A stretch of DNA of 28,196 nt from Candidatus Iainarchaeum sp. (GCA_038895675.1 JAWANB010000007.1:1-28196); one strand, 5' to 3'. Numbered from the stretch's first letter, positions 106-3,865 are shown. Notes: generated from the letters alone by a model not told the origin. Translations and numbers: made by a program.

Positions 106-173
106 TTTCATGCTATTTCAATTAAATAACCGCTGGGATGACAGAGCGGCCATGTACTCGCCTGCAGTAACCC

Positions 174-272
174 TTTTCTTTCCTTTTTACCAAGGAAAGA
201 AAAGCGTTAACGGAAAAGAAAGGTGGTGTTTTTTTCTTTCCTTTTTACCAAGGAAAGAAAAGCGTTAACGGA
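174..272 (+). repeat. Two identical 41-bp hairpin units (type A) inside the tRNA intron
   Basis: TTTTCTTTCCTTTTTACCAAGGAAAGAAAAGCGTTAACGGA at 174-214 and 232-272. Stem (C)TTTTCTTTCCTT/AAGGAAAGAAAA(G), loop TTTACC. Confidence 0.95.
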
Positions 273-276
273 TAAC

Positions 277-404
277 CCTTTTTTGCTGGTCGCAAAAAAG
301 CGTTAACGGAAATGGTATTAGTCCTTTTTTGCTGGTCGCAAAAAAGCGTTAACGGAAATGGTATTAGTCCTTTTTTGCTGGTCGCAAAAAAGCGTTAACG
401 GAAA
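277..404 (+). repeat. 46-bp tandem repeat (2.8 copies) of hairpin unit type B inside the tRNA intron
   Basis: CCTTTTTTGCTGGTCGCAAAAAAGCGTTAACGGAAATGGTATTAGT at 277-322 and 323-368, partial at 369-404. Stem CTTTTTTGC/GCAAAAAAG, loop TGGTC. Confidence 0.95.
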
Positions 405-504
405 AAATTCAATAAATAATTTGCGGCAAGCGAGCAAGGAGGGTTCGACTCCCTCTCCCAGCTTATTTTATATTTATAAAAATACATTATAATGAGTAGC
501 TAAT

Positions 505-1213: not shown

Positions 1214-3865
1214 TTATAATTTTTTGTTGTTCGTGAATTTTTGTATTTCCATTATAGCAAACCCAACTAAAGAAATACCAAGTATTGTTGCCCAATCAAT
1301 TAGGCTTATTGAAGTAGTGTTGAATATTTTTTGCATTGGCTCAAAATAAATTATTAATATTTGCAATAATATTGAAGAAGCTATTCCTAACACGAGCATT
1401 CTGTTTTGCAAAATATTATTGAGGCTTTTCAGAGGCTCTGAACTTCTGCTCCCTATTGCTGCAAACATTTGTAATACTACTAATGTTGTGAACGCCATTG
1501 TTTGAGCTTTTGTAATCCCCTGATTCAAGTAAGCGTAAAATAGTATAAAACTAAAGAAACCCATTATTAAGCCAAAAGTAATTATCATTCTCAAGTTTTC
1601 TTTATTCAATGGTTCTTCTTCGGCCTTTATTGGAGGCTTTTCAAGCATGTTTTGCTTTGTTTTTTCAAAACTTAATCCTATTGCAGGCAAGCCATCAGTA
1701 AGTAAGTTCATTGTTAGTATTTGTAGTGGTGTTAGTGGAAATGGCAAGTTTGCAAGCATTGTTGATACTACTATAACAACTTCTCCTAAATTGCATGACA
1801 ACAGATATTTTGTTGAGTTAATTATTTTTTCATAAACATTTTTTCCTTCATTTATTCCTATTATTATTGTTGTAAAATTATCATCCGCTATTGTTGCGCT
1901 TGAAACTTCTTTAGCTACATCTGTTCCAGTTATTCCCATTGATATTCCTAAATCAGCATTTTTTAGTGCAGGAGCATCATTTACTCCATCGCCTGTCATG
2001 GCCACTATTTTTCCTTGTTTTTTTAGAGCCTTTATTATTCTAAGTTTTTGAATAGGTAGTGTTCTCGCTATTATGCTTGTATCTTTTATTATTCTTTCTA
2101 ATTCTTCATCGCTCATTGCTTCTATTTCTTCGCCTGTGATTACTTTGTCCCCTTCTTCATACAAACCTATTTTTTCAGCTATTGCCTTTGCAGTTTCTTT
2201 ATGATCGCCTGTTATCATTATTACTTTTATTCCTGATTTTTTTGCCTGTTCTATTGCTTCTTTTACTTTTTCTCTTGGTGGATCTATCATCCCAACCAAA
2301 CCTAAAAATGTGAGGTTTGATTCGACTTTTTCTACTTCTTGAAAGTCTTCTTTGATTTCTTTGTACGCAAAACCTATTACTCTTAACGCCTCTTTCCCGA
2401 ATTTCAAGTTTGTTTCCAAAATTTGTTGTTTATCCTTTTTTGTTAGTTTGATTTCTTTGTTTTCCTTTACTATTTTTATGCTTTCTCTTAAAACAATGTC
2501 AGGTGCACCTTTTACTAAAACTAATTTCTTTCCATTTTCTTCTATTATAACGCTCATCATTTTTCTTTCTGAGTCAAAAGGAAACTCTTTTACTTTTTTT
2601 GTTTTTTGTTTTTCTTTTTCAACGTCAAAACCGAACTTTTCTGCGAGAACAAGTAATGATGCTTCCGTCGGGTCTCCTATGACTATTGTTTTTTGTTGAT
2701 TTCTAATTATTTTTGCGTCATTGCAAAGTACTGCTGTTTTTGCAATAATTTGTAATGCTTTGTCATTTTCTGGTTTAGGTGTTATTTTTCCTTCTTTCGT
2801 GTAACCCGAGCCAGTTATTTCATATTCTTTTTGTGTTGTGTAAACTTTTGTTACAGTCATTTCATTTTTTGTTAGAGTACCTGTTTTGTCGGTACAAATA
2901 ACATTTATCTGTCCTAAAGTTTGTATGGCGTCTAGTTTTCTTATTATCATTTTCTTTTTTGTGAGTTCTTGAGCGCCTAAAGCCAAGCTTATTGTTACTA
3001 TTGCTGGTAGAGAATTAGGCACTGCTGCAACAGCCAAACTGAGTGAAAAAATAAGTAATTGTGTTGTTTCTAAATTGCCTTTTAGTGTTCCTAATAGAAA
3101 TATTGCGATTATTATTAAGATTACTATCGCTCCTATTGTTTTTGAAAGTTTTTCAAACTTTTGTTCAAGCAAAGTTTTTGTTCTTTCTGTTTTTGATAAT
3201 GATGCTGCTATTTTTCCAAATTCTGTGTTATTCCCTGTCGCTATTACTATTGCTTTTCCTTTCCCGTAGGTTACTATTGTTCCCATGTACGCCATGTTTT
3301 CTCTATCCGCAACTTCACAATTCTCTTTTAGCGGTTCTACAATTTTTTTTGAGGGTATTGATTCTCCAGTAAGACTTGATTCATCTATTTGTAAGTTTGT
3401 TTCTTCGAATATTCTCGAATCAGCAGGAACAATGTCTCCAGATTCTAAAGCTATTATATCTCCCGGTACTAAGTATTTTACGGGAATAATTTTAGTTTCT
3501 CCATCTCTTATTACTTTTGCTTTTGGCGCTGTTAGTTTTTGGAGTTTTTCCATTGCCTTTTCTGCTCTGTATTCTTGGAAAAAGCCAAGTATTGCTGAAA
3601 TAAATATAACGAATATTATTGCAAGCGTTTCTAATATTTCGTGTAGAATTGCCGATACTATGGCTGCTATGAAAAGTAATATTATTAAGACGTTTTTGAA
3701 TTGGTCTAAAAGTATTTCAGTCCATTCTCTTTTTTTTTGTTTTTGGAATTCGTTATAACCATGTTCTTGAAGTTTTTGTTTTGCTTTTTCTTCAGTTAAA
3801 CCATTTTCGCTGGTTTCAAAAAACTCCATTACTTTTTTGTAATCTTGCGCGTGAAAGTTTTGCAT
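1214..3865 (-). CDS. P2-type cation-transporting P-type ATPase (Ca2+-ATPase-like) with an atypical M4 motif
   Basis: TGES, DKTGTLT phosphorylation site, KGAP, MITGD, GDGVND, M5 SCNLGE and M6 NLLTDGLP are present. M4 reads AAVPNSLP instead of PEGLP. Confidence 0.93.
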   Translation of the reverse strand: MQNFHAQDYKKVMEFFETSENGLTEEKAKQKLQEHGYNEFQKQKKREWTEILLDQFKNVLIILLFIAAIVSAILHEILETLAIIFVIFISAILGFFQEYRAEKAMEKLQKLTAPKAKVIRDGETKIIPVKYLVPGDIIALESGDIVPADSRIFEETNLQIDESSLTGESIPSKKIVEPLKENCEVADRENMAYMGTIVTYGKGKAIVIATGNNTEFGKIAASLSKTERTKTLLEQKFEKLSKTIGAIVILIIIAIFLLGTLKGNLETTQLLIFSLSLAVAAVPNSLPAIVTISLALGAQELTKKKMIIRKLDAIQTLGQINVICTDKTGTLTKNEMTVTKVYTTQKEYEITGSGYTKEGKITPKPENDKALQIIAKTAVLCNDAKIIRNQQKTIVIGDPTEASLLVLAEKFGFDVEKEKQKTKKVKEFPFDSERKMMSVIIEENGKKLVLVKGAPDIVLRESIKIVKENKEIKLTKKDKQQILETNLKFGKEALRVIGFAYKEIKEDFQEVEKVESNLTFLGLVGMIDPPREKVKEAIEQAKKSGIKVIMITGDHKETAKAIAEKIGLYEEGDKVITGEEIEAMSDEELERIIKDTSIIARTLPIQKLRIIKALKKQGKIVAMTGDGVNDAPALKNADLGISMGITGTDVAKEVSSATIADDNFTTIIIGINEGKNVYEKIINSTKYLLSCNLGEVVIVVSTMLANLPFPLTPLQILTMNLLTDGLPAIGLSFEKTKQNMLEKPPIKAEEEPLNKENLRMIITFGLIMGFFSFILFYAYLNQGITKAQTMAFTTLVVLQMFAAIGSRSSEPLKSLNNILQNRMLVLGIASSILLQILIIYFEPMQKIFNTTSISLIDWATILGISLVGFAIMEIQKFTNNKKL

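Follow-up and report, generated by a model that had tools for sequence, protein, structure and literature searches.

A tRNA-Cys gene with a long, repetitive bulge-helix-bulge intron, and its relation to a family of three-strand modules at tRNA and gene ends in Iainarchaeota

Two halves of a tRNA-Cys gene lie 261 nt apart near one end of a 28,196-nt stretch of archaeal DNA (the window, which is the entire contig C7 of its assembly). Do these halves make up one working gene and, if they do, where did so long an intron come from? Usual archaeal tRNA introns are several times shorter than 261 nt. The source genome (G000) has 838,897 bases in 43 contigs, a G+C content of 32.6% and an estimated completeness of 91.7%. 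Its EndA is 70–86% identical to the EndAs of MAGs that carry the name Candidatus Iainarchaeum or Diapherotrites, Ca. Iainarchaeum andersonii among them, and we therefore took the organism to be an Iainarchaeota (DPANN) archaeon. The locus was found in nine sequencing runs from four studies, all of them DNA runs labelled hot-springs metagenome, with no RNA run among them.

We observed that the 5′ exon (132–167; (+) strand, as for all features of this gene) covers tRNA positions 1–37, with the anticodon GCA at 164–166 and G37 at 167, and that the 3′ exon (429–463) covers positions 38–73, with the discriminator at T463 and CCA not encoded. Read directly, the acceptor stem is fully paired (GCTGGGA, 132–138, with TCCCAGC, 456–462; 7/7 pairs), as is the anticodon stem (157–161 with 430–434; 5/5 pairs), and the T arm lies at 439–455. 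When the exons were joined in a script at 167|429, ARAGORN returned a tRNA-Cys(gca) of 71 nt with U73 and a standard cloverleaf. The two halves do reassemble into the clean cloverleaf with GCA, G37 and U73 that the initial annotation had seen in them. Reading of the sequence suggested a possible TATA box, TTTATAAA, at 105–112, about 20–27 nt before the tRNA 5′ end.

The intron (168–428; 261 nt as assembled, 36% G+C) occupies the canonical 37/38 position. A strict search for the bulge-helix-bulge (BHB) motif, defined as a 5-bp stem, a 4-bp helix and two 3-nt bulges, recovered both junctions. On the 5′ strand (157–170), the anticodon stem (157–161) is followed by the central helix (162–165), a bulge (166–168) and the inner helix (169–170), with the cut after 167; on the 3′ strand (421–434), the inner helix (421–422) is followed by the central helix (423–426), a bulge (427–429) and the anticodon stem (430–434), with the cut after 428. 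The central helix pairs CTGC with GCGG with one G·U, the bulges read AG|T and CA|A, and the anticodon loop becomes CTGCAGA. This motif had been described as a textbook BHB; the helix 162–165/423–426 and both bulges are there, but the term is slightly generous, as next to an outer helix of 5 bp and a central helix of 4 bp the inner helix has just 2 bp. A free-energy fold of the whole precursor (−116.4 kcal/mol, z −5.4) contained neither the cloverleaf nor the BHB.

Default ARAGORN and Rfam at gathering scores found nothing in the window, where no Rfam family of any kind matched at those scores, and the expectation that standard annotation would miss this gene was borne out. When introns of up to 400 nt were allowed, ARAGORN reported one gene at 132–463 with an intron of 261 nt, placing the cut two bases early and naming the gene Gly(gcc). 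We found no other tRNA-Cys among 39 ARAGORN genes, 34 Rfam tRNA hits and an exon BLAST in G000, although the incompleteness of the genome (91.7%) counts against the sole-copy reading, as a second tRNA-Cys may lie elsewhere. The intron had also been said to hold no C/D boxes and no credible ORF. Neither box C (RUGAUGA) nor box D (CUGA) matched on either strand, which leaves no sign of a box C/D guide in it, and the ORF at 83–268 had no Pfam match.

The gene has intron-bearing orthologues in seven relatives, and with the same BHB script we obtained the same splice positions and anticodon loop in 7/7 of them. Their introns measure 63, 69, 123, 127, 138, 143 and 240 nt, and their exons agree with the present ones at 56–69 of 71 positions. 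At stem pair 28:42 the present gene has T-A where each of the seven has C-G, a compensatory change with one side in each exon, and in the orthologue BHBs the central-helix variants GCGG and GCAG each pair with CTGC. Three relatives have a tRNA-Cys free of the intron: the halves are contiguous in G009 and G013, and locus L066 is also intron-less. DNA searches with the window's gene gave matches in 20/22 other family genomes, and those with the intron of a relative in 19/22.

The machinery for splicing such a precursor is encoded in G000. EndA has 170 aa, carries PF02778 and PF01974 (N and C domains), is alpha4-like and scores 97 bits; RNase P RNA is encoded as well (98.7 bits), and RtcB is present as two adjacent ORFs (331 and 287 bits) that overlap by 4 nt. 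We noted that the RtcB ORFs, at C26:1419-3133 (−), measure 346 aa (Pfam model 1–248) and 225 aa (model 205–426); the gene of this tRNA ligase is either split or frameshifted. According to PMC5829648, DPANN alpha4 EndAs with an extra loop go with more disrupted tRNA genes. We propose that the tRNA-Cys gene and its intron would be transcribed as a single precursor, in which the anticodon arm and the last intron bases would fold into the BHB. EndA (170 aa, alpha4-like) would cut after G167 and after A428, and RtcB would ligate the exons and probably circularise the intron.

Next, we analysed the body of the intron. It is composed of one complete and four truncated copies of a module of ∼58 nt, all in sense orientation, and the covariance model R1 found no antisense module in it. 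The complete fold-back module (168–228, (+); R1 65.4 bits, E 5.8e-11, full length; 171–223 in our module detector) runs from a head, TAAC, through a pyrimidine arm, a loop, a purine arm and the linker CGTTAAC to a mirror purine tract, GGAAAAGAAAGG. A second copy of the hairpin with its linker follows at 231–271 ((+); 25.6 bits, model positions 6–37), in which the next unit replaces the mirror tract. Three truncated modules (273–407, (+)) share a shortened hairpin (TTTTTTGC / GCAAAAAAG) and a linker (CGTTAACGG) and make a perfect 46-nt tandem repeat; R1 matched them at 273–312 (27.3 bits), 319–358 (21.3 bits) and 365–407 (24.9 bits), and TRF reported 277–404 with a period of 46, 2.8 copies and 100% matches. 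In the 28-kb window, R1 matched the intron alone, five times at 21–65 bits, the best score elsewhere being 16 bits. The order of a purine-class triplex motif (pyrimidine-purine-purine) is seen in 168–228 and not in the other four units. The intron body derives from the standard two-module intron of this lineage, set out below, and we infer that it lengthened through truncated copies being duplicated locally in tandem (2 + ∼3 units). The number of 46-nt copies could differ from that in the assembly, because no Logan contig of X1–X4 spans the intron (204–376 is not covered by one contig) and the unit is longer than the assembly word; the true intron may be longer or shorter than 261 nt by multiples of 46 nt.

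The intron of tRNA-Cys is not a one-off expansion, because its module family is common to four other introns of G000 and to hundreds of sites in relatives. In G000, the family occurs in the canonical BHB introns of the Ser-GGA (228 nt), Arg-TCT (170 nt), Ser-GCT (156 nt) and Tyr-GTA (126 nt) genes, located at C1:95609-95920, C6:7822-8067, C12:4381-4622 and C15:15929-16127 (−), respectively. Alike intron sequences are present here in genes with different anticodons, as in transposed introns of the Thermoproteales type. We found no further gene for any of these four anticodons, and none of the four is recovered by the Rfam tRNA model; ARAGORN misnames Ser-GGA as Leu(tag), Arg-TCT as Pyl(cta) and Ser-GCT as Ser(gga). 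Together with tRNA-Cys, five long-intron genes escape the Rfam model, each the sole gene found for its anticodon and those for Cys and Tyr the sole ones found for their amino acid, and automated annotation would therefore report missing tRNAs.

Our module detector gave 11 matches in the whole of G000 against 0–1 in five shuffles, where both the detector and ARAGORN at the 400-nt intron limit make some false calls in low-complexity DNA. The modules found all lie in tRNA introns, save for one complete module directly 3′ of the tRNA-Arg gene (C6:8070-8129, (+)), in the trailer of that tRNA, and a row of four or more units at the end of a contig (C20:1-400, (−)). A 13-base linker motif occurs 13 times in G000, namely five times in the tRNA-Cys intron, four times in the long C1 intron, once just 3′ of the C6 tRNA and three times on C20. 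Our best guess is that the intron modules of this copy-poor genome are mostly relics, kept since they are spliced out.

In the relatives, a 4-nt head is followed by a C, a pyrimidine arm, a loop, a purine arm, a C, the complement of the head, 2–3 nt and a second purine tract, which is the mirror of the first purine arm, that is, the parallel complement of the pyrimidine arm. The introns of relatives carry a sense module after the 5′ splice site, a variable hairpin, and an antisense module before the 3′ splice site, and this two-module plan was seen in tRNAs for Cys, Ser, Arg, Pro, Tyr, Gly and others. The AACC/GGTT heads of the modules lie directly at the splice sites, and in many cases the inner helix of the BHB is formed from them. 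An intron made of three hairpins (H1-H2-H3) was also considered and dropped: the middle helix was unsupported, with a complementarity of 9.0 within introns against 9.3 between introns, and two three-strand modules took its place.

We measured covariation in an alignment of 84 modules from relatives. In the hairpin and its 4-bp closing helix, 94.7% of 1502 cells were paired against 82.3 ± 0.4% after shuffling, and pairing fell to 58–67% when the partner was slid as a control. Compensatory change was found at 14/18 pairs, with 217 double-change cells against 55 ± 8 in the shuffles. The third tract behaved in the same manner: 92.4% of 1244 cells were parallel-complementary (75.9 ± 0.7% shuffled, 48–56% slid), and double-change cells numbered 143 against 46 ± 5. 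For 108 unique modules picked by the hairpin alone, the third-tract score was 12.78 against 9.49 ± 0.17, a value reached by 0/1000 permutations, while direct-repeat and antiparallel controls gave 8.6–8.7 against 8.3–8.4, also with 0/1000 as high and with z of ∼4 against 16–19; these shuffle statistics overstate the significance, because module copies are related by descent. The modules show 64 distinct arm patterns. At the leader site of tRNA-Cys in five genomes, four T-run patterns (5-4, 6-4, 4-5 and 5-5) were observed, in which the three strands had changed together.

Because the three strands covary by the rules of triplex pairing, as these are summarised in PMC13541005 and PMC4666352, we infer an intrastrand triple helix. 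The covariation of a hairpin closed by a 4-bp head/linker helix and of a third tract is observed, and a triple-helical fold would fit it. The predicted triplex would be of the purine type in sense RNA and of the U·A-U/C+·G-C type in the antisense orientation. Purine-type triplexes are weak in RNA. Should the triple helix exist, prokaryotes would have here a rare example of a long natural triplex on which selection clearly acts.

Coming back to the tRNA-Cys gene, all the sequence-level tests that were run agree with the initial proposal of a functional tRNA-Cys with a much expanded canonical intron, and they point to cis-splicing by the ordinary archaeal pathway. We regard it as highly probable that 132–463 is a working, and probably the only, tRNA-Cys(GCA) gene, spliced by EndA and RtcB, with an intron derived from the module intron of the lineage. 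The intron contains six runs of 5–7 T, among them those at 229–235 and 279–284. Such T5–T7 runs are termination signals in archaea and could shorten the precursor; if they stop transcription, the halves would be expressed separately and joined in trans, as are the split tRNAs of Nanoarchaeum. The layout, with a 5′ exon followed by a trailer-type module here and a leader-type module ahead of the 3′ exon in relatives, would also suit this arrangement, which we nevertheless consider very unlikely. We read no promoter-like spacing in the sequence ahead of the 3′ exon, and the halves are adjacent and co-oriented in 8/8 genomes. Moreover, complementarity between the two modules of one intron is no greater than that between modules of different introns (9.0 against 9.3), and the modules therefore offer no long guide for pairing in trans.

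That the expansion of the intron killed the gene, which would now be decaying, might be read from the loss of the antisense module and of most of the inner helix and from the truncation of the units. However, the exons are intact and carry the compensatory stem change, the BHB core is intact, and no second tRNA-Cys was found in the assembly; a pseudogene is improbable in the extreme. We hold it to be just as improbable that repeats common to other loci led the assembler to join the two tRNA halves. The repeat family is present on C1, C6, C12 and C20, and in the stretch 204–376 that has no spanning Logan contig, loose ends at 235 and 273 run into other copies. Against such a join, unitigs at 168–218, 189–235, 198–272, 243–306 and 323–404 link the contigs 1–203 and 377–900 (X1, X2 and X4) and cross junctions unique to this locus, the tRNA halves pair 7/7 and 5/5, and seven relatives have the gene with an intron at the same place.

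To see where the modules lie, we classified 104 of them in 71 loci of relatives, which had been fetched through matching a module query, so that the classes, resting on the module detector and ARAGORN calls, describe the copies found and not a genome-wide rate. Among these modules, 38 lie within tRNA introns (23 sense, 15 antisense), 21 lie ≤12 nt from a tRNA 5′ end (antisense) and 15 lie ≤12 nt from a 3′ end (sense). For modules outside a tRNA but ≤100 nt from its end, the head is on the tRNA side in 36/37. A further 29 are away from tRNAs; 12 of them lie behind a co-oriented ORF and start ≤40 nt from its stop codon (seven of the 12 at 1–6 nt), and in seven of the 29 a convergent ORF lies at the tail. 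The three-strand match was 0.95–0.97 in all five context classes and equal in both orientations relative to the host transcript. A promoter-like conserved motif, ..GCTTTTTAACC.., was noted ∼10–70 nt upstream of leader modules, for example at L003, L006, L008, L016, L021 and L030, and since it lies upstream of the module, a leader module would be part of a long pre-tRNA leader.

At the level of genomes, the covariance model of the module matched 58/101 genomes of the order at E ≤ 1e-3 and 43/151 of the phylum sample at E ≤ 1e-5, including 18/19 other family genomes, with up to 36 scored copies per genome in the scan of the phylum sample. Copy numbers among close kin were 0 in G001, 1 in G002, 9 in G000, 24 in G003 and 36 in G004. 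A literature search, for the most part outside subscription journals, gave no account of the module, of Iainarchaeota tRNA introns or of triplex-type elements at archaeal tRNA genes. The make-up of the intron brings together three subjects that are usually handled separately: the introns of tRNAs, the leaders and trailers of pre-tRNAs, and the 3′ ends of mRNAs share one structured element whose three strands co-evolve.

What, then, does the module do? We tentatively favour an RNA-level boundary cassette, which would keep flanking RNA folded on itself beside processing sites (EndA, RNase P, 3′ ends) and shield the ends that are released. Two observations count against a role in RNA: a sense-orientation RNA triplex would be of the purine type, and the three-strand match is equal in both orientations, which suits a constraint at the level of DNA or of mobility at least equally. 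If the constraint is on DNA, the modules would edge RNA-coding segments in the form of triplexes (intrastrand or H-DNA-type) or of hairpins bound by protein, acting as barriers to transcription or replication, bidirectional terminators or insulators, and the tRNA introns would tolerate them. The identical three-strand constraint in both orientations, the T5–T6 runs on both strands, and modules directly past stop codons and between convergent genes (L047) agree with this, and PMC4666352 reports that the intrastrand triplex motifs of bacteria form in vitro in DNA. However, the leader and intron copies sit inside transcribed precursors and must be read through, modules lie 0–4 nt from tRNA 5′ ends with the promoter-like motifs further upstream, and mirror covariation is not needed for simple termination at T runs; we consider the DNA-level role unlikely, with some chance of being right.

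The modules could also be selfish, REP- or MITE-like repeats with strand-specific spread, a structure that serves mobility and no host function, the introns being inverted module pairs that landed in the anticodon loop. Near-identical copies occur at unrelated loci of one genome (L038–L041 of G004), there are dozens of copies per genome, and close kin differ sharply in copy number. Paired inverted modules look like REP doublets, and alike intron bodies recur in many isoacceptors; the transposition of Thermoproteales introns, as described in PMC4090602, offers a comparison. We looked for a mobiliser among Y1 transposases (RAYT/TnpA) and rejected it: PF01797 had 0 matches in G000, where no cognate enzyme of a REP/RAYT system was found in this search, and its presence in 9/23 family genomes bears no relation to copy number, the copy-rich G006 and G011 being without a match (both are incomplete MAGs). 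The spacing of 0–6 nt to tRNA ends and stop codons, with heads toward the tRNA, is hard to obtain from random insertion, and three-way compensatory changes occurred in place at orthologous sites. Purely selfish spread is in our view about as unlikely as the DNA-level role.

With the RNA-level cassette as the role that we tentatively favour, a wider proposal is that Iainarchaeota have in this module a previously undescribed boundary element able to form a triple helix, of which inverted pairs would be the vehicle of tRNA intron gain. Two modules would land head-outwards in an anticodon loop; their AACC/GGTT heads would pair as the inner BHB helix, and EndA could then remove the insert. We put this forward as a possibility that is rather doubtful. 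If true, one cassette would define tRNA leaders, trailers, introns and mRNA 3′ ends, and would offer a testable route for the arrival of archaeal tRNA introns. For the Asgard archaea, a 2026 preprint (bioRxiv 10.64898/2026.10.13.758758) found no general route of tRNA intron arrival; the module gives a handle on how archaeal tRNA introns arrive.

We compared the locus with known systems. The tRNA-Cys intron is like canonical archaeal 37/38 introns (BHB, EndA, RtcB) in its position, 3-nt bulges, 4-bp helix and cut sites, and the EndA and RtcB genes are present here too; it differs from them in being repetitive, in coming from a genome-wide module family and in its inner helix of 2 bp. The tRNA-Trp intron of Haloferax carries a box C/D guide. 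Both are unusually long canonical introns, whereas the tRNA-Cys intron has no C/D boxes. Very similar introns in tRNA genes with different anticodons are known from the Thermoproteales (Fujishima et al. 2010, as described in PMC4090602). The likeness to those families is that introns resemble one another closely across anticodons within one genome, whereas the shared unit here is a module of ∼58 nt that, in either orientation, also borders tRNAs at their 5′ and 3′ ends and follows protein genes.

The strand order of the module in turn recalls triple helices of other kinds. In MALAT1, two U-rich strands clamp an A-rich tract. The antisense modules of relatives have the same strand order (U-rich, linker, U-rich, loop, A-rich) and are followed by the tRNA 5′ end, the RNase P site; the MALAT1-type 3′-end triple helix, with RNase P cleavage at a tRNA-like structure, is treated in PMC8457004. 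The organisms and sequences are unrelated, and for leader stabilisation the MALAT1-type comparison is one of strand order only. R1 found no antisense module, and hence no ENE/MALAT1-type element, in the window intron, whereas the leaders and introns of relatives do have such modules. Bacterial intrastrand triplex motifs, comprising the ITxF classes, TMECO and the BoxC/PIT elements (Holder et al. 2015, PMC4666352), share with the modules three homopurine/homopyrimidine segments on one strand, a hairpin with mirror symmetry and many copies. The bacterial motif characterised in that text is G/C-rich, was studied as DNA and is linked to instability, whereas the Iainarchaeota modules are A/T-rich, archaeal, located at tRNA exon edges and gene ends, and provided with a covarying 4-bp closing helix.

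Some minor observations were made in the course of this work. In relatives, modules lie 1–6 nt past the stop codon of a protein gene at L047:431-485, L049:416-470, L052:397-451, L056:408-458 and L064:446-500, and at L047 two modules stand tail to tail, close together. At L037, L060 and L069 (of G004, G021 and G006), conserved non-coding sequence with ...GAACAGAAGGCGGCTTA.. at its end precedes the module and may be where a structural RNA terminates. Two contigs (L102 and L106) in MAGs labelled Chloroflexota/Chloroflexi carry an EndA 56–57% identical to that of G000; these contigs are probably archaeal and mis-binned. In the window itself, a Pfam search with the ORF at 505–882 (125 aa) returned no match, and 1214–3865 (−) encodes a P-type cation-transporting ATPase of 883 aa with E1-E2 ATPase and Cation_ATPase N and C domains.
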